DNA of 44,582 bases from Mycoplasma sp. CAG:611. Lineage in GTDB: Bacteria > Bacillota_I > Bacilli_A > RF39 > UBA660. The position numbers and the translations under genes were made by a program. Numbering within the stretch: the first letter of the stretch is position 1; the number at the start of each line of letters is the position of its first letter. The notes beneath the pieces are model-generated. The model was given only the letters and a program-made list of their open reading frames with translations. It did not search any database and was not told the origin of the DNA. This document shows positions 2,374 to 12,542 of this stretch, one piece after another. The stretch spans positions 26,618 through 71,199 of the forward strand of contig HF999802.1 in the NCBI GenBank assembly GCA_000434175.1, in the 5' to 3' direction.

Positions 2374-2904
2374 TTGAGAGAACAAATTATCTTAAGTTAC
2401 CAAAACTTAATATATAAAATATTATCTCATTATAGAATTTTATATAATTATAATAAAGATTTTGAAGAAGACTATTTTCATGAAGGAATAATAGCATTAA
2501 CTTTAGCTTATGATACTTATAAAGATGATTGTAATATTAAGTTTATTACTTATGCATCAAGATGTATTCATAATAGATATAAAGATATATTTAAAAAGAA
2601 ATCATTTAATGAAGAACCATTAGATTTACAAATAAAAGATGATTTATATTTATTAGATATTATTCCATCAAAAGAAGAAAAGATTCTTGATATGTTAATA
2701 AGAAAAGAAACAAAAGAAGAGTTAGAAAAATTTTTGAATAATTTAAGTAATGATGATAACTTTATTATATGTAGTTTATATGGTATTAAAACTAAAAAAA
2801 TAACTCAAAAGAATTTAGCAAAGATACTTAATTGTACTCAAAGTTGTATTGCTAAAAAACATAATAAAATATTAAATCTAATTAAAGAGGATCTGAAATA
2901 TTAA
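2374..2904 (+). CDS. Element-encoded sigma-70 family sigma factor (small; regions 2 and 4)
   Basis: Region 2-like segment HEGIIALTLAYDTYKDDCNIKFITYASRCIHNRY and region 4 HTH ITQKNLAKILNCTQSCIAKKHNKIL. The TTG start has a weak RBS, so the start is uncertain. Confidence 0.65.
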   Translation: MREQIILSYQNLIYKILSHYRILYNYNKDFEEDYFHEGIIALTLAYDTYKDDCNIKFITYASRCIHNRYKDIFKKKSFNEEPLDLQIKDDLYLLDIIPSKEEKILDMLIRKETKEELEKFLNNLSNDDNFIICSLYGIKTKKITQKNLAKILNCTQSCIAKKHNKILNLIKEDLKY

Positions 2905-3074
2905 ATCAGGTTCTTTTTTAACAGTTTAATTTAAAAAGTTTTATTTATAATATTAGTTATAAAAAAACGAAATTCACGTTTAACTTAGATTTTAAAATAA
3001 AATCCTTAAATAAAAATGAAAGTAGTTTGTAAATGTCAATCTTTAATTTTATTTAAAATTTTTCAAATAGGGGG

Positions 3075-3102
3075 TTGACTATGTGGCAAAATATGGTAAA
3101 AT
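3075..3102 (+). promoter_or_regulatory. SigA-type promoter of the cargo operon
   Basis: TTGACT (3075-3080), a 16-nt spacer, then an extended -10 TGgTAAAAT (TAAAAT at 3097-3102). Confidence 0.6.
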
Positions 3103-3146
3103 ACTATTTAAATTACTTAGGAGGATGGTGGCATGAAAACATTAAC

Positions 3147-3284
3147 ATGAAAACATTAACAAATATGATATTTAAATGTTTCTTTAAAGAGAATTGCATT
3201 AACAGCCTAAATATTGTTAGTGCTATTTGCTCATGCTTTAATTTCTGCCTAAATTTAAAATTATGTCTTGTCGGCGCATGTTAA
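3147..3284 (+). CDS. Candidate 45-aa Cys-rich hydrophobic peptide in the operon leader (coding status uncertain)
   Basis: MKTLTNMIFKCFFKENCINSLNIVSAICSCFNFCLNLKLCLVGAC has 7 Cys. The AGGAGG at 3119-3124 serves the upstream duplicated ATG at 3133, which reads MKTLT-stop. That TGA overlaps this ATG as ATGA. Confidence 0.3.
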   Translation: MKTLTNMIFKCFFKENCINSLNIVSAICSCFNFCLNLKLCLVGAC

Positions 3285-3311
3285 ACGTAAAAGTTTTGCG
3301 CTGGCTTTTTT
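3269..3311 (+). terminator. Intrinsic terminator/attenuator between the leader and the Rel/SpoT gene
   Basis: A 9-bp stem gtcggcgca/tgcgctggc (2 G-U pairs) with an 18-nt loop, followed by 7 T. It sits 17 nt before the GTG start at 3328. Confidence 0.7.
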
Positions 3312-3327
3312 TATTGGAGGTGTTTAA

Positions 3328-4767
3328 GTGAATAATATTACATTACAAGATTTATTAAATAAGCTAAATGAATATAATCCTAACGAAATTGAAATTGTAA
3401 AAAAAGCATATGAATATGCAGCAAATTTGCACTCAGGTCAAACAAGGCAAAGTGGAGAACCATATATATGTCATCCATTAAATGTTGCTTATATACTCGC
3501 TGAAATGCATGCGGATAGAGATACAATATGTGCAGGATTATTACATGACACATTAGAAGATACTAATACTACTAAAGAAGACATATCACATGACTTTAAT
3601 CAAAATATTGCTAATTTAGTAGACGGAGTAACCAAATTATCTAAAATGAATTTCTCATCTAAGCAAGATCAAAATTATGCTAATACTAGAAAAATAATAA
3701 CAGGAATAACAGAAGATGTTAGAATAATAATTATTAAACTTGCTGATAGACTTCATAATATGAGAACACTACAATTTAAGTCTGAATTTAAACAAAAGGA
3801 AAATTCTATTGAAACAATGGAAATATTTGTACCTTTAGCTTATTATATTGGAGCATATAGAATTAAATCAGAATTAGAAGATTTATCATTAAAGTATCTT
3901 AAACCAGATATGTATAGACAAATAGAAGAACGTAAGATAAAATTAGAACAAACTAGTAGTTATTGTTTAACTGAAATGTTATCTAAAATAGAGCATTTAT
4001 TAAAAGATAACAACATACCTAATGAAATAAAGGTAAGAACTAAGAATATTTATGGTATATATAAAAGATTAAGTGAAGGTCATAAATTATCTGATATTCA
4101 TGATTTATTAGCACTAAAAATTATGGTTGATAATGTTGAAAATTGCTATAGAACACTGGGAATGATTCATAGTGAGTATCATCCAATAAATGATAAATTT
4201 AAAGATTATATATGTAATCCCAAAACAAATATGTATAGAAGCTTACATACAACAGTATTTGGACCTGATGATAAACTAGTACAGACTCAAATTAGAACAT
4301 TTGATATGGATAGAGTAGCGTCATTTGGCTTAACTGCATACTGGGATGAACAAAAAGGTAAAGCTAGAGATGTAATGCAAGAAGACTTAAAACAAAAATT
4401 TCAATTTTTTAAGTCATTAACAGAAATCAATTCTATGTTTGGTGATAATCAACAATTTGTTAAACAAGTAAAAAGTGAATTATTTGCTGATAAGGTTTAT
4501 GTATATACGACTAAGGGAGATATAATAGAACTTCCTAGAGGTTCTACACCAATAGATTTCGCATATAAAATTCATACTGACATAGGAAACACTATGGTAG
4601 GGGTATTTGTTAATGATGAATATGTCCCAATAGATTATATCTTACAAAATAAAGATAGAGTTAGAATAGTAATTGATGATTTATCATATGGTCCAAGAGA
4701 AGATTGGATTAATAAAGCACAAACAAGTTTAGCAAAAAGGAAAATAAAGGAATTTAATAAAAAATAA
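3328..4767 (+). CDS. Rel/SpoT homolog (HD hydrolase + synthetase-like + TGS domains) lacking the C-terminal regulatory half
   Basis: HD motifs HSGQTRQSGEPYICHP and LLHDTLEDT are present, along with LADRLHNMRTL. The synthetase region reads RTKNIYGIYKRL, DLLALKIMV and YRSLHTTV. The TGS domain reads VYVYTTKGDIIELPRGSTPIDFAYKIH. The protein ends about where helical/ZFD/ACT domains begin in full-length Rel. Confidence 0.85.
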   Translation: MNNITLQDLLNKLNEYNPNEIEIVKKAYEYAANLHSGQTRQSGEPYICHPLNVAYILAEMHADRDTICAGLLHDTLEDTNTTKEDISHDFNQNIANLVDGVTKLSKMNFSSKQDQNYANTRKIITGITEDVRIIIIKLADRLHNMRTLQFKSEFKQKENSIETMEIFVPLAYYIGAYRIKSELEDLSLKYLKPDMYRQIEERKIKLEQTSSYCLTEMLSKIEHLLKDNNIPNEIKVRTKNIYGIYKRLSEGHKLSDIHDLLALKIMVDNVENCYRTLGMIHSEYHPINDKFKDYICNPKTNMYRSLHTTVFGPDDKLVQTQIRTFDMDRVASFGLTAYWDEQKGKARDVMQEDLKQKFQFFKSLTEINSMFGDNQQFVKQVKSELFADKVYVYTTKGDIIELPRGSTPIDFAYKIHTDIGNTMVGVFVNDEYVPIDYILQNKDRVRIVIDDLSYGPREDWINKAQTSLAKRKIKEFNKK

Positions 4768-4819: not shown

Positions 4820-7003
4820 GTGATTGAAAAAAAAGAAATAAAAAATATTGATTGCAATATAGAAAATGTTTTTAATTATCCAGAAATGTATATAGATTTA
4901 ATTAATAAACAAAAAGGTTTAGTAAAAATTGATAAGAAAAAATACACAGGAAAATCATTGGTATTAGTTATGTTTACATCAGTGTGCGATGTCGGCTGCC
5001 CGTTCTGTTGCTTTAAAGCTTTATCTTCTGCGACTAAGAAAAATATTAAGAATCAATTTACTCCTGAAGGTGTTAATAAATTTATTGAGTTTGCTAATAA
5101 AGCAAATGTTGGATATTTGCAAATATCTGGTGGAGGAGAGCCTTTCTTGGAAAAAGAAGCGTTATTAAAAAGTATTGAAAAAATAAATGCTGATAGGATA
5201 ATTTTAGTTACCGGAGGGGTATGGGCATATAATAGAGAAAAAGCAGAAAAATACTTAGATGAAATAAACCAAGCTATCAAAAAAAGAAAGAAGAAAGCAC
5301 GTATTTCTATTAGATTAAGCATTAGTCAATGCCATAGTATTAAATTAAAACATTATCCACTAGAAAATTTAATTAATATATTTGAAACTAAATATAGAGA
5401 TAATAAAAACTTTACATTACAAATAAAAACATTTAAAGATGATCCAACGTTAGAAAATAATCTAAAGACAATGGGTAGAAAATTTAAAATTGAAAAACTT
5501 CAGCCTAATAAATCTGATGATGACAAAATCATTAAGATAATGCCTTGGAAATCAAAATTAATACTTGACTCTGGATTTGAAATAGTAATTGGAATATCAA
5601 GGGTTTTCTATCCATCATTCAGACCAAATCTACATAATAATAAGTCATTTATGAAAATGGTGGAACTATATGATATAGATTTAGATAAATCACAAAATTA
5701 TTTTCCGTCACGTGCGTATAACTCTAAAGGTTATTTTGGTTTAGATTGGCTTGTAGAATATAATGGTAACATTAGTACATGGCAAAATAGCATTCAGGAC
5801 GATCAATTGAATATCTATGAAGATAATTATAAAACATCATTAAATCATACATTAGCAAATTTAATAACAAGATCATGCATTGACAATGGCTCAAAATATA
5901 GAGAAAAAATTGTATCAGAAATATCACCGAAAACGGTTATGCTGATGAAAGCCAATGGGATTAGAGATTATGCAAGTTCAATCCTCTTTGCTGATGCAAA
6001 GATAAGACTTTATGCTTATATTAGAATATTACAAGATTACGTAAAACAAGGACTTGTAAATGAAAAATTAATAGAAAATATGCCAGCTAGTATACAAAAA
6101 TTAATAAAATCACCTAAAAGTGTAATAAAAAAATATTATTTAAAGTCTAATACTTCGATATTAGCTCAAGAATTAAGTGCAGAGCCAGATAGAGATAAGT
6201 ACAAAGATTTCTTAGAATTAGTTAAATTAGGACATTTTGAAATGTCTAAACAAGATATTCAAACAGCAGTCGCATATTATAATATGTTTTTTCCGGATAA
6301 AAGAATAGCCAAAATAGAAGACTTTGTTAACGATAATAAAAATATGGATTTTAGGTTAAGGGATAGACTCTCTCCGATGAAAAAATTAAAAGATTTGAAT
6401 AATAAAGTAAATAATAAAAAGGAAATTTATATTTTTAGACATGGAGAAACTAATTGGAATGTTGAAAATAAAATTAGAGGAACATTTGAAGACACATCTT
6501 TAAAATTTACTGATAAAGGATTAAAACAGATTGATAAAATAGCATTAGCATTAGAGAAAAATAAAATTGAATATATTTATTCATCAGATCTTATTAGAAC
6601 TAGGAAAACGGTTGAGCTAGCTAATAAAGATTTTAAAATACCGGTGTCTTTTCATAAAGAATTAAGAGCTTGGAATGTTGGAAAATATCAAGGTAAACCA
6701 CTTTCTAATTTTTTAAATAGTCATGAAGGCAAAGAAGCTATTACAGATTACAATAAAGTTGTAACTGATGGTGAAAGTATTAATCAAGTTAGAGAAAGAT
6801 TAATGTATTTCTTAGAAAAATATGTAGTTAATTGTCCTTATGAAAGGGTTGCAATAATTACACATGGAGCCACAATGAGTAATTTAAAATCAGAAATAGA
6901 TGGTGAACAATATATTGATATTGATTATTGCAAAATAGTGTATGAAAATAAAAAGTTTAAATTGGTTGAAAGTAAAATTAGTGAAACTGATTTCGCAAAA
7001 TAA
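4820..7003 (+). CDS. Fusion protein: N-terminal radical-SAM domain, unassigned middle region, C-terminal histidine phosphatase (PGM-family) domain
   Basis: The CX3CX2C motif CDVGCPFC and SGGGEPFL mark the radical-SAM domain. The C-terminus has IYIFRHGETNWN (RHG motif) and a second catalytic His in IITHGAT. GTG start with an AAGGTG RBS. Confidence 0.8.
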   Translation: MIEKKEIKNIDCNIENVFNYPEMYIDLINKQKGLVKIDKKKYTGKSLVLVMFTSVCDVGCPFCCFKALSSATKKNIKNQFTPEGVNKFIEFANKANVGYLQISGGGEPFLEKEALLKSIEKINADRIILVTGGVWAYNREKAEKYLDEINQAIKKRKKKARISIRLSISQCHSIKLKHYPLENLINIFETKYRDNKNFTLQIKTFKDDPTLENNLKTMGRKFKIEKLQPNKSDDDKIIKIMPWKSKLILDSGFEIVIGISRVFYPSFRPNLHNNKSFMKMVELYDIDLDKSQNYFPSRAYNSKGYFGLDWLVEYNGNISTWQNSIQDDQLNIYEDNYKTSLNHTLANLITRSCIDNGSKYREKIVSEISPKTVMLMKANGIRDYASSILFADAKIRLYAYIRILQDYVKQGLVNEKLIENMPASIQKLIKSPKSVIKKYYLKSNTSILAQELSAEPDRDKYKDFLELVKLGHFEMSKQDIQTAVAYYNMFFPDKRIAKIEDFVNDNKNMDFRLRDRLSPMKKLKDLNNKVNNKKEIYIFRHGETNWNVENKIRGTFEDTSLKFTDKGLKQIDKIALALEKNKIEYIYSSDLIRTRKTVELANKDFKIPVSFHKELRAWNVGKYQGKPLSNFLNSHEGKEAITDYNKVVTDGESINQVRERLMYFLEKYVVNCPYERVAIITHGATMSNLKSEIDGEQYIDIDYCKIVYENKKFKLVESKISETDFAK

Positions 7004-7018
7004 TGTAGGAGGTGTATT

Positions 7019-8860
7019 GTGGATAAGGAAATGTTATTATTAAAAGCTAAAAGAATTAATACATATAATAATAAGGAGCAAAAAGAAATCTACGATGAAG
7101 TTATAAAGAATTTTGATAAATTTAGTGAATCTGAGCAAATTGACTTACTGCTTATTATGCGTACATATTTTTTAAAACAAGCAACTTTAGTAGAAAAAAG
7201 AGAATATGTTAAGAAAGTTGTTATAAGTATTAAAAAGCAATCAAACTTTATAGCACAAATCATTGAGTTATCATCAATAATTTATAAGTATACTACTAAA
7301 TCATTGCAGAATGAAATATTTGATGCTGTCTTTTTGGTTAACGATATGAAGCCTAGAAAACTTGTTGCTATATTATATTTTATAAAAAATACACATCGTG
7401 TTTATAATAAAAAACAATTTGATATAAGTAGAAAGAAGATAGAAGAAATCACAAAAGAAGCACCAGAATATTTAACTGACGCAATTACAAGTTTAAATAA
7501 CGATATTAGTAAAGATTTCAAGAAAAAAGGAAAATATTTATTCTTAATACCAGAATTTTTAAATGGCACGACTTTTGTTCAACCACCTTTAGCTTTAATG
7601 AATTGTGCAACTTATTTGAAAAATGACTTTTCTATAGATGTTGATATTCTTGATAATAGAATTTATAATTATCCATTAAAAGATTTACTTAATATTATAC
7701 GTAATTATAAAAAAGGAATAGTAATTTGTTCTTCTACGATTGACCAAGTACATAATTATTTTGTTGATTATCGTTATGTTATTTTTACAAAGTACGTAAA
7801 AACTATTAAAGGTAAATTTAATAATATACCGATTATCATATGTGGTGGGCAGGGCACTGTGAGGCCAGATATCGTCTTTAACGATTGTAATCCTGATTAT
7901 ATATTAAAAGGGGAATTTGATATTCAATTAGCTAATGTAATTAGAAATATGGATAAAAATGTTCCAATTGAAAATCTTCCAAATATTATTTATAAAGAGA
8001 AGAAGAAAATAATTAAAACAAGAGAGGATTTGAATGAACAACATCCAGTTGAATGGTGTAAATATGTACCTAATTATAATTTGATTCATTTAGAATGTTA
8101 TTTTGGCTATAGATATTATGATAATATGCCGGTAAGAAAATTGCACTGGAGTGTTGTTCAAGCAAGTAGAGGGTGTCCATTTAATTGCGCTTTCTGTTAC
8201 AATTTTTTTGCTAAAAGTGTTCGCTTTAGAAAAATAGATTCGGTAATAGCCGAATTAAAAGAAATACAAGAACGTGGGATTGAAGAAATATTCTTCTTAG
8301 ATCAAAATTTTATACTTGATAAAAAATATGCACAAAATTTATGCAAAGCCATGATAAATACTAAAATTCGAATCAAATGGCAATGCCAGATTTGTGTAAA
8401 TTCAATAGACTATGATACACTTAGTGTTATGAAAAAGGCGGGGTGTCAATTAATTTGGTTAGGTATTGAAAGTTTTGATGAAAATGTTCGCAAAATTAAT
8501 AATAAGAATTATTCTAATGAGCAATTATTAAAAGCAGTAGTTGCAATTAAAAATGCAGGAATTAATTACAATGGATTCTTTATGCTTGGTATGATGGGGG
8601 ATACTAATGAATCAATGGGAAAAACAGTTGAGTTAATAAAAAAACACAAAATAAATCTTACCAAAAGCATATTAATATGTACTCCTAGATTTGATACACA
8701 AATGTATCAAGAAACTGTTAAACAATTGGGAACAGAAATTGATAGTTTTTTAAAACTTGATTCGTATAAAGGAAGTATTAATAATAATGTAACTGAATCT
8801 GATATTAGTTATTATTTAGGAGAATTATTAAAAATGTCTAATGACAAAAAAGGAGAGTGA
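7019..8860 (+). CDS. B12-binding-domain radical-SAM enzyme with an N-terminal extension of about 170 aa
   Basis: A Rossmann-like B12-binding-type region (LFLIPEF...PPLALMNCATYL...ILDNR) precedes SRGCPFNCAFCYN (CX3CX2C). GTG start 6 nt after GGAGG. Confidence 0.75.
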   Translation: MDKEMLLLKAKRINTYNNKEQKEIYDEVIKNFDKFSESEQIDLLLIMRTYFLKQATLVEKREYVKKVVISIKKQSNFIAQIIELSSIIYKYTTKSLQNEIFDAVFLVNDMKPRKLVAILYFIKNTHRVYNKKQFDISRKKIEEITKEAPEYLTDAITSLNNDISKDFKKKGKYLFLIPEFLNGTTFVQPPLALMNCATYLKNDFSIDVDILDNRIYNYPLKDLLNIIRNYKKGIVICSSTIDQVHNYFVDYRYVIFTKYVKTIKGKFNNIPIIICGGQGTVRPDIVFNDCNPDYILKGEFDIQLANVIRNMDKNVPIENLPNIIYKEKKKIIKTREDLNEQHPVEWCKYVPNYNLIHLECYFGYRYYDNMPVRKLHWSVVQASRGCPFNCAFCYNFFAKSVRFRKIDSVIAELKEIQERGIEEIFFLDQNFILDKKYAQNLCKAMINTKIRIKWQCQICVNSIDYDTLSVMKKAGCQLIWLGIESFDENVRKINNKNYSNEQLLKAVVAIKNAGINYNGFFMLGMMGDTNESMGKTVELIKKHKINLTKSILICTPRFDTQMYQETVKQLGTEIDSFLKLDSYKGSINNNVTESDISYYLGELLKMSNDKKGE

Positions 8861-8865
8861 TATAA

Positions 8866-9870
8866 ATGAATGCTAAAGAAATTAGTAAAAGTAAATATTT
8901 AGATTTTGTTGAAGAAAAATTTAAGGCTTGTTTTAATGAAAAAGGATATGTTGAAGAACCAGCAGTTAATGTTACTTCCAAAATTGATCCAACAGTTGAC
9001 TTTATAGGTTCTAATATTTCACCATTAAAAAAATACTTAGATAATGAAGAATATGGTGATATAGGAAGATACATTGTGCAGGAATGTATGAAATATAAAT
9101 CATTTAAATATCTGAAAACTGATGTTCCACAAAAATTTGGCTGTTATTATAGAGGAATGGGAATAATAGCAAAACCAGATTTAGAAACAGTTGTTAAAGA
9201 TACTTTTGATTATTTAACTGATGAAAAATATTTAAACATTCCTCCTAAAGATCTTTGTATAAAGATTAGTTCTAAGGATGATGATTTAGTAAAGGCAACT
9301 GAAATTATCGATGGTGAAATAACTCGTTTAGTTGAGCAATCAAGCACTGAACATTATAGGCATCAATACGGCATGGATGAAAAAAATATTTTTGGAAGAG
9401 ATTTTAATATAGGCCTTAGAAAAAAAGACACAAATGAGTTTTTGAATTTTGCTGCTTTTGTTGTTATGGAAAATAATGATAGAAAGTTAGCTATTGATAT
9501 GGGGATTAGCAATTTAGTTTTATCTATGTGTAAATTTGGTACAAGTTCTACAGTAGCTAGTTCAAGAATTGCAGATTTTCTTGACATAGATTGTATTATA
9601 AAAGAAAAATTTGCAGATGCATTAGTTGCTGTATCAATTTTATTGAAAGAAGATATCACCAATCATAGATCTAAACATTTAAGAATGAAATTTAATCAAT
9701 ATTTACGTGTATTAAATTATTGGAATGAACAATTACAATATACTAACGAAGATGTAGTTAATTTAATTGTAAATTATTTAACTGCAGAATATCATTCTTG
9801 CTTTGAGCAAAGAAAAGATGAATTTTATAAAGTATTAACTTTGCAAAAAAAACGTATGGGTATAAAATAG
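8866..9870 (+). CDS. Stand-alone alanyl-tRNA-synthetase catalytic-core-like protein (divergent, possibly non-canonical)
   Basis: A by-eye alignment to the AlaRS N-terminus holds along the whole length. KEISKSKYLDF..IDPTVDFIGSNISPLKKYL matches AEIRQAFLDFF..NDPTLLFTNAGMNQFK. AIDMGISNLVLSM matches VDTGMGLERIAAV. ADALVAVSILLKEDI..HLRMKFNQYLRVL matches ADHIRSCAFLIADGV..YVLRRIIRRAVR. Confidence 0.5.
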   Translation: MNAKEISKSKYLDFVEEKFKACFNEKGYVEEPAVNVTSKIDPTVDFIGSNISPLKKYLDNEEYGDIGRYIVQECMKYKSFKYLKTDVPQKFGCYYRGMGIIAKPDLETVVKDTFDYLTDEKYLNIPPKDLCIKISSKDDDLVKATEIIDGEITRLVEQSSTEHYRHQYGMDEKNIFGRDFNIGLRKKDTNEFLNFAAFVVMENNDRKLAIDMGISNLVLSMCKFGTSSTVASSRIADFLDIDCIIKEKFADALVAVSILLKEDITNHRSKHLRMKFNQYLRVLNYWNEQLQYTNEDVVNLIVNYLTAEYHSCFEQRKDEFYKVLTLQKKRMGIK

Positions 9871-9902
9871 ATTATTATATAATAATAAGTATGGAGGATA
9901 AA

Positions 9903-10607
9903 ATGAGATTATTTTTAGCTAGTAATATTGGGGGTATAAAAAAGGAAAATGGTAATAAAATGCCAGTAAAATTTTTTGAAGATAATAAATTTTTAAAAAA
10001 TATGAAAGAAAGCATAAAGGATTACAATAAATTTGTTATTATTGCGAGTGATCCTGACAATTACGAATTAAACGATAATTATCTAAAACTAGATACAGAA
10101 ATTTTAGCATTATCAGGTCTTAAATTTAAAGAAAGTTTGGTACTTGATAATCGAAATAAAGAAGATATTGGTAATATACTTAAGAATAGTTCACTTATTT
10201 TTCTTAGTGGTGGTAATACATTTCAGCAAAATATGTTTTTAAATGCTATAAAGCTTAAAGATTATATCAAAGAAACTGATGCATGTATTGTTGGGATTAG
10301 TGCTGGCGCAATAAATAGTGCAGAAATTGTGTTTAGTAGTCCTGAAAATGAAAAAGATTTAACTCGTTCTGTCATATTAAAAGGTCTTGCTTTAACTACA
10401 ATTAACGTTGAACCACATTTTGATTTAGATAATCCTAATAAGATTCAAATGGATTCAATAATAAAAGAGTCAAATAATAGGATTATTTATGGGCTTCCAG
10501 ATAAATCGTATATATTTAATAATAAAGTTTATGGTAAATGTTATAGAATTTATAAAGAAAATATTGAACTAATTTCAAATGATGATGAAATAATAGATAT
10601 ATATTAA
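9903..10607 (+). CDS. Peptidase S51 family (dipeptidase E / cyanophycinase-like)
   Basis: FLSGGNTFQQ and VGISAGAINS (the GxSAG nucleophile elbow) are present. I chose the ATG at 9903, 5 nt after GGAGG, over the ATG at 9891. Confidence 0.7.
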   Translation: MRLFLASNIGGIKKENGNKMPVKFFEDNKFLKNMKESIKDYNKFVIIASDPDNYELNDNYLKLDTEILALSGLKFKESLVLDNRNKEDIGNILKNSSLIFLSGGNTFQQNMFLNAIKLKDYIKETDACIVGISAGAINSAEIVFSSPENEKDLTRSVILKGLALTTINVEPHFDLDNPNKIQMDSIIKESNNRIIYGLPDKSYIFNNKVYGKCYRIYKENIELISNDDEIIDIY

Positions 10608-10638: not shown

Positions 10639-11355
10639 TTGATAATTTCAAATGATTTATTTTATTTAAGTGGTAGTTGTTTTTCTGCGGTAAATAATAA
10701 AAGTATATTAGGCGAAGTATATGGTATAAATACAGGCCAAGGGTTAATATTAATAGATTGTGGAGAGGCTTCAACTGGTCCTGCTATGTTGAAAAAAACA
10801 TTAAAAAAATTTAATATTAATTCGCCTATAACGCATGTCATTCTTACTCATGGACACCACGATCACTGTGGAGGTGCTAAAGAAATGCAAGAGGCAGGTG
10901 CGAAAATTATAGTAGGTGCAGGTGATGCAACTTATTGCAAACAAGGTGGGCCAAAAGGAACACCATATGATATAGAGCAATCATTTCCTGCATTTATTCC
11001 CGATGTAGAAATATCTGTAGACAAAGAAATGATTATAAACGGTATTATGTTTGAATTTATTATGATACCAGGACATACAAATGGAGGAATGGCCATTAGG
11101 GTAAAGGTCGATGGTAAACTTGTTTTGTTTACCGGTGATACATTGGAAGCGGATGGAACTTACTTAGATAAATTTTTATTTGGTTGGGAAGGAGATCCAG
11201 CTTTTAATAAAGAAGAGATTGTTAATAGTATAATGAAATTAGCAAAATATAAAGCTGATATAGTTTTATCTGGCCACGGAAAAATATGCTTAATAAATGG
11301 TACTAAGTTGATCCGTCAAGCAGCAAAAAAAGTGAAAAGCATTCTAAATGTATGA
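10639..11355 (+). CDS. Metallo-beta-lactamase-fold hydrolase
   Basis: HxHxDH motif in VILTHGHHDHCGGA, with later His/Asp ligands (PGHTNGG, TGDT, SGHG). TTG start after GGAGG. Confidence 0.8.
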   Translation: MIISNDLFYLSGSCFSAVNNKSILGEVYGINTGQGLILIDCGEASTGPAMLKKTLKKFNINSPITHVILTHGHHDHCGGAKEMQEAGAKIIVGAGDATYCKQGGPKGTPYDIEQSFPAFIPDVEISVDKEMIINGIMFEFIMIPGHTNGGMAIRVKVDGKLVLFTGDTLEADGTYLDKFLFGWEGDPAFNKEEIVNSIMKLAKYKADIVLSGHGKICLINGTKLIRQAAKKVKSILNV

Positions 11356-12008: not shown

Positions 12009-12542
12009 CAATATTCACATACAAATAAACTTGTTAGGTTTTATGAAGGAGCAGATGGTCTTAAAACGGGTTCAACTACAGATGCTGGAAAATGTATCGC
12101 AGCAACTGCCAAAAGAAATGGTTTAAGACTTATTGCAATAAGTTTAGGATATAAAGATGTAACAACAAGAAATAAAGAAACAATGGATTTACTTGATTAT
12201 GGTTTTAATCAATATGAAATAAATATGCTTTATGAAAAAGATAAAAAAGTAGGAACAGTTAATGTAGATAAGGTAAATGAAAAAATAGATTTATATGCTA
12301 AAGAAGATATATTTATATTAAAAAAGAAAATAGATGAAAGTATTTCTTATCAATATGAAATAGTTTTAGATAATGTTAGTTATCCAATTAAAAAAGGTCA
12401 AAAAATAGCAACACTTTATGTAAAAGACAATAATACAATAGTAAAAAAATCTCCTTTAGTAGTAAATAAAGATATAAATAAGATGAGTATATTAAAGTTA
12501 TATTTTTATAACTTAAAAGACATTCTAGCAGGATTAAATTAA
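12009..12542 (+). pseudogene. 3' fragment of a D-alanyl-D-alanine carboxypeptidase (PBP5/DacB/DacF type)
   Basis: The frame opens after the TAG at 12006-12008 and reads HTNKLVRFYEGADGLKTGSTTDAGKCIAATAKRNGLRLIAISLG...LLDYGF, which includes the KTG motif and C-terminal domain. The SxxK and SxN parts are absent from the window. Confidence 0.7.

Follow-up and report, generated by a model that had tools for sequence, protein, structure and literature searches.

An alanyl-tRNA synthetase derivative with a rebuilt active site in a mobile three-gene cassette, a candidate aminoacyl-nucleoside-forming enzyme

The 44,582-nt window analyzed here is a stretch of the genome of Mycoplasma sp. CAG:611 (contig HF999802.1, positions 26,618 to 71,199 of the forward strand), and its gene at 8866–9870 encodes an AlaRS-like protein that we call AlaL. 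AlaL derives from alanyl-tRNA synthetase (AlaRS) and keeps the class II fold, and the residues of its active site indicate that it no longer functions as a tRNA synthetase. Its gene belongs to a conserved three-gene cassette, together with a fusion of a radical S-adenosylmethionine (SAM) enzyme to a histidine phosphatase and with a peptidase of family S51. This ancestry, the fold, the residue changes and the gene partnership were observed directly. On this basis we propose, with about an even chance of being right, that AlaL joins an amino acid to a nucleoside that has been modified by radical-SAM chemistry and dephosphorylated, the S51 peptidase serving as an antidote of the MccG type.

8866–9870, + strand: AlaL, 334 aa; class II aminoacylation domain at about residues 1–243 and the proximal half of the tRNA-recognition helical domain at about residues 244–334.

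The AlaL open reading frame (ORF) is a real reading frame, with a GGAG Shine–Dalgarno sequence about 9 nt 5' of its ATG and a gap of 5 nt between the stop of the upstream gene and its start. Identity of AlaL to AlaRS is 12–14%. Pfam reported no family for AlaL at E ≤ 0.1, PF01411 included (gathering threshold 30.3 bits), and a single-sequence search of the PDB gave only chance matches to enoyl-ACP reductase. The short-AlaRS model of NCBIfam, NF002436, aligned AlaL residues 15–194 with model positions 6–180 (E 1.4e-6), at 27.2 bits against a model cut-off of 529 bits. A profile of 33 AlaL homologues found AlaRS as its sole match in the PDB (1riq/3htz, E 0.35, collinear) and, in three related genomes, picked up the true alaS genes (E 1.8e-10 to 6e-6). 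Alignment of the AlaL family to 16 AlaRS N-termini with hhalign gave 97% probability (E 9e-11), and addition of the wider family gave 99.2% over 338 columns (E 1.1e-19). The AlphaFold2 model of AlaL (mean predicted local distance difference test score, pLDDT, 89.8) had AlaRS catalytic fragments as its top Foldseek matches (E 5.6e-15, TM 0.73–0.75). In VIA, it aligned with AlaRS fragments (9jc7/3htz/3hxu) over 313 of its 334 residues, with a Z score of 27.6 and a root-mean-square deviation of 3.0 Å; the runner-up family was GlyRS-alpha (Z 14.8), and HisZ-type structures stood lower in the list (Z ~13.5). Homology to AlaRS from the N-terminus on, which the original prediction had drawn from an alignment by eye, is thus borne out by the profile, hhalign, Foldseek and VIA searches, and the alignment was not spurious. 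The PF01411 search proposed with it missed AlaL itself, but the more distant family members P0130, P0184 and P0103 pass the threshold of that family (46, 35 and 33 bits).

The VIA alignment sets AlaL residues 6–334 on residues 1–371 of Escherichia coli AlaRS, 1–357 of A. aeolicus AlaRS and 55–426 of A. fulgidus AlaRS, and the AlaL C-terminus corresponds to about residues 421–426 of the last. Residues ~244–334 form four helices whose structural counterpart is the first half of the tRNA-recognition domain of AlaRS, and this retained part holds a conserved basic helix, S-K-H-F-R-K-K-F. The distal half of that domain, the editing domain and C-Ala are absent. AlaL had been described as a catalytic core devoid of tRNA-recognition, editing and C-Ala domains; this holds for the latter two, but the proximal half of the recognition domain is present.

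Several AlaRS motifs are retained in AlaL, namely DPT...F..G....K in the N-terminal region, Q-x-C-x-(R/K) and D-x-G, and the pocket contains K76, N194, A197, V199, D211, G213 and R234. The previously noted replacement of an RCVR-like motif by ECMK is correct, reading Q72-E-C74-M-K76 in AlaL against QKCIRT in the genome's own AlaRS. The proposed counterpart of GMGLERI, DMGISNL, is indeed divergent, but its register was off by two, as D211-M-G213-I-S-N-L-V falls on D-T-G-M-G-L-E-R. D211 and G213 are the retained equivalents of Asp235 and Gly237, and the Glu-Arg of motif 3 is lost; in the profile alignment L217-V218 lies on this Glu-Arg, N194 on Glu209 and A197 on Asn212. Residues at these sites were tabulated for 33 sequences of the window's subfamily and 135 of the wider family, 168 in all.

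Arg69 site: Arg in AlaRS; Arg in the wider family (128/135); Lys (28/33) or Arg (5/33) in the window's subfamily.
Glu209 site: Glu in AlaRS; Asp in the wider family; Asn (Asn/Ser/Thr) in the window's subfamily.
Asn212 site: Asn in AlaRS; Asn in the wider family; Thr/Ala in the window's subfamily.
Asp235 site: Asp in AlaRS; Glu in the wider family (124/135); Asp in the window's subfamily (33/33).
Gly237 site: Gly in AlaRS; Ala/Gly in the wider family; Gly (32/33) or Ala (1/33) in the window's subfamily.
Motif-3 Arg site: Arg in AlaRS; variable in the wider family; variable in the window's subfamily.

None of the 168 sequences has the motif-3 arginine at its aligned position, unlike the active ones among other stand-alone class II paralogs of aminoacyl-tRNA synthetases (aaRSs), which generally keep it. 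R234 is invariant in the window's subfamily, one of whose features is a total of 38 invariant columns among the 33 members at identities to AlaL down to 41%, which argues that the pocket is under selection and not decaying. Because this pocket has been rebuilt, the amino acid used by AlaL is probably one other than alanine.

AlaL has 61 close homologues of 300–340 aa, none of which carries a precomputed Pfam domain. At E ≤ 1e-3, an exhaustive profile search over 1.84 billion cluster representatives gave at least 482 clusters, of which 135 also reached E ≤ 1e-30. With few exceptions these are stand-alone proteins of 300–430 aa, and some distant members are fused to a GNAT, methyltransferase or HD domain. 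In an AlaRS-rooted tree the window's subfamily is nested deep within the wider family. The AlaL gene was absent from all 60 searched relatives of the window's genome, no AlaL relative was found in IMG/VR viral contigs, a plasmid collection held no match for the AlaL homologue on a Calothrix plasmid, and we found no description of this AlaRS-like family or its cassette in the literature. Other class II paralogs that stand alone (amino acid:carrier-protein ligases, AsnA, EpmA/PoxA and HisZ) likewise have a core detached from tRNA charging, but these descend from SerRS, AspRS, LysRS or HisRS and AlaL from AlaRS. A weak match to AlaL (25.8% over residues 12–140, 129 residues, E 3e-4) lies at 21–404 on the minus strand of phage record MT839551.1, an unannotated 7.7-kb phage fragment from human faeces; this could reflect either a phage-encoded AlaRS or a family member truncated where the contig stops. 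One metagenome-assembled genome (MAG), CATYVZ01, has two AlaL-like genes (L041 and L049), 84% and 48% identical to AlaL, and the second copy (L049) has an S51 gene alongside and no radical-SAM/phosphatase fusion.

In the window, AlaL is the fourth of six genes in a co-directional operon, the other five being:

3328–4767, + strand: truncated Rel/SpoT paralog (HD + RelA_SpoT + TGS, 479 aa); accessory, in only some cassettes.
4820–7003, + strand: radical-SAM/histidine-phosphatase fusion, 727 aa; constant AlaL partner.
7019–8860, + strand: B12-binding radical-SAM enzyme, 613 aa, likely a C- or P-methyltransferase; accessory, in the closest relatives only (L041, L042, L064 and L065).
9891–10607, + strand: S51 peptidase, 238 aa; constant AlaL partner.
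10639–11355, + strand: metallo-beta-lactamase-fold hydrolase, 238 aa; accessory, in the closest relatives only.

Gene neighborhoods were surveyed at 13 genome loci and 31 metagenome loci, labeled by source as Bacilli, Erysipelotrichaceae, Clostridia, Patescibacteria/Shapirobacteria MAGs and one Alphaproteobacteria MAG. AlaL, the fusion and S51 are the constant genes and the remaining operon genes are accessory, Rel being absent from most cassettes. The fusion adjoins AlaL in 10 of the 13 genome loci and S51 does so in 11, and most metagenome contigs long enough to tell show both beside AlaL. In many loci, L004, L051 and L053 for example, the AlaL gene overlaps or abuts the fusion gene. The operon setting on which the original prediction relied therefore stands as to conserved partners, but the conserved unit has three genes, not six. 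Many copies have large serine recombinase genes or an integrase gene beside them, and the AlaL cassette is a mobile DNA unit. PADLOC 2.0 matched AlaL, the fusion and S51 to no defence family, the accessory B12 radical-SAM enzyme, Rel and metallo-beta-lactamase proteins touching candidate models weakly; in PHROGs nothing was found for AlaL or S51, and the phosphatase domain of the fusion matches one PHROG of unknown function.

The fusion protein has a CX3CX2C cluster (C56, C60, C63), a helical middle at ~337–520 and a C-terminal His_Phos_1 domain (RHGET, H682). Its only invariant cysteines are C56, C60, C63 and C704, and there are no auxiliary-cluster cysteines. In the model of the 727-aa protein (pLDDT 80.4), the C-terminal domain matches PhoE and alpha-ribazole phosphatases (Foldseek, VIA; Z 23.4). 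In two variant loci, L077 and L082, the fusion gives way to an AphA-like HAD phosphatase plus a separate, stand-alone radical-SAM enzyme, with S51 and AlaL kept; the L082 radical-SAM enzyme has the viperin family as its best match (9.7e-20). Because the phosphatase is exchanged for an unrelated one in these variants, a phosphorylated substrate appears to be a fixed feature of the pathway. At L004 (13111–13962), the place of the window's B12 enzyme is taken by a 283-aa RlmN/Cfr-like radical-SAM methyltransferase (E 3.5e-50) lacking about the first 70 residues of RlmN, which suggests adenine C-methylation as an optional decoration.

The S51 protein matches PF03575 (E 9.5e-14) and has an intact Ser137-His176-Asp204 triad, in which S137 and H176 are invariant. 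Asp204 lies 28 residues after the histidine, the spacing of H168 and D196 in MccG. The third triad position is Asp in most cassette S51 homologues and Glu or Asn in some; the Asp is common to MccG and the window's S51, whereas PepE has Glu. The cassette is decaying in three lineages, in two of which S51 is intact and both AlaL and the fusion survive only as remnants. In L048/L074 (the same contig; 10001–13871 in L048), AlaL is divided between two ORFs and just 95 aa are left of the fusion, and in L090/L091 (7971–10826) AlaL is reduced to an 81-aa stub; both keep S51 and the adjoining serine recombinase intact. In L073 (5376–9276), the fusion is broken into four pieces. The outlasting of AlaL and the fusion by S51 may be likened to the behavior of orphan immunity genes.

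The contexts of the wider family are likewise centered on nucleotides in all eight clusters inspected, seven of which contain an S66 (MccF-type) peptidase. Other neighbors are DCD pairs or triplets, a thymidylate-kinase-like gene, viperin-like radical-SAM enzymes, class I methyltransferases, Orn/DAP decarboxylases, Acetyltransf_3 GNATs and one carbamoyltransferase, and the clusters also hold extra aaRS genes, including core-only tRNA-synt_2 proteins. The wider family also occurs without any radical-SAM partner. A recurrent module consists of a class I methyltransferase, the AlaRS-like protein, S66 and a core-only tRNA-synt_2 protein (Asp/Lys/Asn-type, 339–379 aa, without an anticodon-binding domain), and thus pairs two different aaRS-derived cores in one cluster. 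It was seen at L094:8193–12303 (Calothrix parasitica NIES-267 plasmid AP018229.1), L095:549–4239 and L060:290–5294; the methyltransferase and S66 domains are fused at L060, and the methyltransferase lies further downstream at L095.

From these partners we infer a substrate, a donor, a product and a role for the peptidase. The radical-SAM domain of the fusion would alter a nucleotide, and its phosphatase domain, or the AphA-like HAD phosphatase in the variants, would strip a phosphate. AlaL would then hold the resulting nucleoside in its old adenylate site and add an amino acid, giving an aminoacyl-nucleoside antimetabolite, and S51 would cleave the aminoacyl bond and so shield the producer, in the way that MccG acts on processed microcin C. 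The amino acid is somewhat more likely to come from aminoacyl-tRNA than from an adenylate made with ATP, because the motif-3 arginine is missing in every member examined.

AcmF of the ascamycin pathway (Streptomyces sp. 80H647) is the precedent for this kind of enzyme. This AlaRS-like protein is truncated and has no adenylation activity; with Ala-tRNA as donor, it attaches Ala to the sulfamate of a nucleoside that occupies the former adenylate site, and the hydrolase AcmE reverses the step by removing Ala (PMC12945691). The two proteins were compared through the published residues and description of AcmF; judged by those residue numbers, AcmF itself was not found among the top 150 representatives of the AlaL family. 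Each is a shortened AlaRS relative that stands alone and has neither an editing nor a C-Ala domain; residues required for ATP binding and amino-acid activation have disappeared from both, and each is clustered with nucleoside-modifying genes, S51 in the cassette being the presumed counterpart of AcmE as an aminoacyl-removing hydrolase. The loop between the Asn212 and Asp235 sites is 13 residues long in AcmF and 14 in AlaL, compared with 23 in E. coli AlaRS. The partner enzymes differ, being a sulfamate pathway for AcmF and the radical-SAM/phosphatase fusion for AlaL, as do the hosts, Streptomyces in the one case and gut Bacilli with ~1-Mb genomes in the other. The general idea of the original prediction, that AlaL, as part of this operon, charges a nucleotide or metabolite with an amino acid, fits the conserved partners and the AcmF precedent (PMC12945691); nothing specific in the evidence favors its other suggestions, a resistance or regulatory protein or binding of a tRNA acceptor end.

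The likeness to microcin C concerns protection and decoration. MccG, an S51 enzyme, hydrolyses aminoacyl-nucleotides as self-immunity (PMC9239234), the S66 enzyme MccF does the same and the GNAT MccE2 acetylates them to the same end (PMC8323819). MccD, with a class I methyltransferase fold, and a carbamoyltransferase decorate microcin C compounds (PMC8323819). The constant neighbor of AlaL is an S51 enzyme with a Ser-His-Asp triad, as in MccG, and the sister AlaRS-like branches adjoin S66, Acetyltransf_3 GNAT, class I methyltransferase, Orn/DAP decarboxylase and carbamoyltransferase genes, the types used for decoration and detoxification in microcin C systems. The window's S51 is by this analogy a candidate MccG-like hydrolase of aminoacyl-nucleosides or aminoacyl-nucleotides for self-protection. 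Microcin C clusters, however, carry the ThiF-like adenylyltransferase MccB and a short MccA precursor that ends in Asn. MccB was seen neither in the window's operon, whose six proteins have no ThiF domain, nor among the related clusters inspected, and no small conserved ORF was found upstream of the cassettes. AlaL would, on this comparison, stand in for MccB. The window's operon also differs from microcin C in having no exporter.

Several observations weigh against the proposed aminoacylation of a nucleoside. No member of the AlaL family has a known product, substrate or activity, and the operon, besides its lack of an exporter, has no dedicated tRNA. AlaL lacks the distal half of the tRNA-recognition domain, which weakens the case for an aminoacyl-tRNA donor; AcmF has the whole domain, and mutation of its E374 lowers activity, whereas AlaL has about half. 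AcmF Glu232, at the Asp235 site, is essential, and AcmF has Gln at the Asn212 site (PMC12945691). The wider family shares the Glu but the window's subfamily has Asp, and at the Asn212 site the wider family has Asn and the window's subfamily Thr/Ala. The radical-SAM domain of the fusion has the peptide epimerase EpeE as its nearest structure (Z 15.4), followed by SuiB, PqqE and SkfB, against Z 10.4 for viperin, and its sequence is weakly viperin/MoaA-like (E 5.5e-5 and 8.5e-6). Its similarity to the stand-alone enzymes of the variants is generic and not orthologous, and the viperin label is therefore not transferable to the window enzyme. Finally, the S51 enzyme could serve maturation instead of immunity.

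The surroundings of the operon include two further features:

3075–3327, + strand: operon leader, with a terminator-like hairpin and then a T-run.
9–1280, + strand: large serine recombinase (Resolvase + Recombinase + Zn ribbon), truncated at the edge of the window; left end of the island.

Within the leader, the stretch 3103–3327 also holds a tandem 14-nt duplication and a 45-aa Cys-rich ORF. A search of 2800–3500 for a T-box or riboswitch gave no Rfam match at E ≤ 1, and the Cys-rich ORF is not conserved at other loci, only ICSCF recurring in the closest relative, L041. To the right of the operon, a lone PBP5_C domain ORF lies at 12183–12542, and the island ends beside this remnant, in keeping with the earlier suggestion that the island interrupts a dac gene. 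No tRNA genes were found in the window or within cassettes. A full-length Rel of 718 aa is encoded on another contig of the genome (C26, L096), making the operon Rel an extra copy. The L001–L003 loci have a Ham1-like ITPase gene immediately upstream of the Rel paralog and one for TyrRS after S51. The sole alaS of the genome is a separate gene on contig C56, ~58 kb downstream (L006:1495–3243), and encodes 582 aa only, compared with mostly 863–924 aa for the AlaRS reading frames of relatives in the same family and class; the host therefore uses a short AlaRS lacking ~300 C-terminal residues.

AlaL might instead be an ATP-dependent ligase that makes an aminoacyl-adenylate and passes the amino acid to a nucleoside, or another small molecule, taking the place of tRNA A76. 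We regard this as unlikely but to be taken seriously. The basic residue of motif 2 (K/R at 76) and the equivalents of Asp235 and Gly237 are kept, and the helical domain has no distal, tRNA-binding half. AlaL also ends at about residue 371 of E. coli AlaRS; deletions from the Schimmel laboratory reportedly showed that an N-terminal AlaRS fragment ending near ~371 forms the adenylate and does not charge tRNA. However, the missing motif-3 arginine (168 of 168 sequences) is the residue by which class II enzymes hold the gamma-phosphate of ATP, the window's subfamily has further lost the Glu209 and Asn212 equivalents, and AcmF, with comparable losses, does not adenylate (PMC12945691). The same loss of canonical catalytic residues would suit a non-catalytic subunit of the HisZ type, which would bind a nucleotide, an aminoacyl-nucleotide or a tRNA end and present this ligand to the fusion enzyme or regulate that enzyme. 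The overlapping or abutting AlaL and fusion genes in many loci (L004, L051 and L053 among them) and the HisZ-type structures among the lower matches (Z ~13.5) agree with such a subunit. We nonetheless find it quite improbable: constraint on the pocket is strong, with polar and charged residues surrounding the former active site among the 38 invariant columns, the wider family is found without a radical-SAM partner, and fusions to GNAT, methyltransferase or HD domains fit a pathway enzyme better than a dedicated regulator.

The mobile setting, with the serine-recombinase island here and integrase or recombinase genes beside other cassettes, would also fit a tRNA-directed toxin or defence system, in which AlaL docks on the acceptor end and the fusion, with Rel where present, modifies the 3' end and halts translation, for instance during phage infection. 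The TGS domain of the accessory Rel paralog and the basic helix S-K-H-F-R-K-K-F in the retained part of the tRNA-recognition domain point the same way. This is very unlikely, given that the three core proteins match no PADLOC model, IMG/VR viral contigs hold no relative, AlaL lacks the distal tRNA-binding subdomain, most cassettes have no Rel, and the S51/S66 partners point to a small aminoacyl-nucleotide (PMC9239234). Slighter still is the chance of a peptide pathway, either PEARL-like or one for peptides made by the ribosome and modified after translation (RiPPs), with AlaL extending a precursor peptide, the radical-SAM enzymes modifying it and S51 releasing the product. Peptide maturases (EpeE at Z 15.4, SuiB, PqqE and SkfB) are indeed the best structural matches of the radical-SAM domain, and the leader ORF is Cys-rich and 45 aa long, with a B12-dependent radical-SAM enzyme in the same operon; yet that ORF is not conserved and most cassettes have none like it, the radical-SAM domain of the fusion lacks auxiliary-cluster cysteines, and the constant phosphatase, in two unrelated forms, would be left unexplained. 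A second functional or resistance-type AlaRS is scarcely credible. Homology to AlaRS speaks for it, but it is contradicted by the missing distal recognition subdomain, editing domain and C-Ala, and further opposed by the loss of the motif-3 Arg and of the Asn212 equivalent, by the failure of PF01411 to score AlaL and by the genome's own alaS.

Returning to the proposal that AlaL aminoacylates a modified nucleoside, its correctness would mean that AlaRS gave rise to a large, almost unstudied family of small-molecule aminoacyl transferases with AcmF as the sole characterized relative. In uncultured gut Bacilli, Patescibacteria, cyanobacterial plasmids and other hosts, its members would flag gene clusters that make aminoacyl-nucleoside or aminoacyl-nucleotide antimetabolites. 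An AlaRS-like gene beside S51 or S66 would then be a genome-mining handle for new aaRS inhibitors or puromycin-like compounds, and the proposal would explain many S51/S66 'immunity' peptidases found without microcin C clusters. As the cassette comprises only three genes, the proposal is directly testable by heterologous expression. A bolder version, doubtful though not far-fetched, is that the cassette is a compact, horizontally mobile pathway whose products are aminoacyl-nucleoside translation poisons of a new class, formed from a radical-SAM-altered (possibly viperin-like) and dephosphorylated nucleoside triphosphate, with aminoacyl-tRNA as donor, the former adenylate pocket of AlaL as acceptor site and S51 as antidote. 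In that case the family of at least 482 clusters would represent a widespread MccB-free route to microcin-C-like or ascamycin-like warheads, which cells might use in competition or in phage defence.

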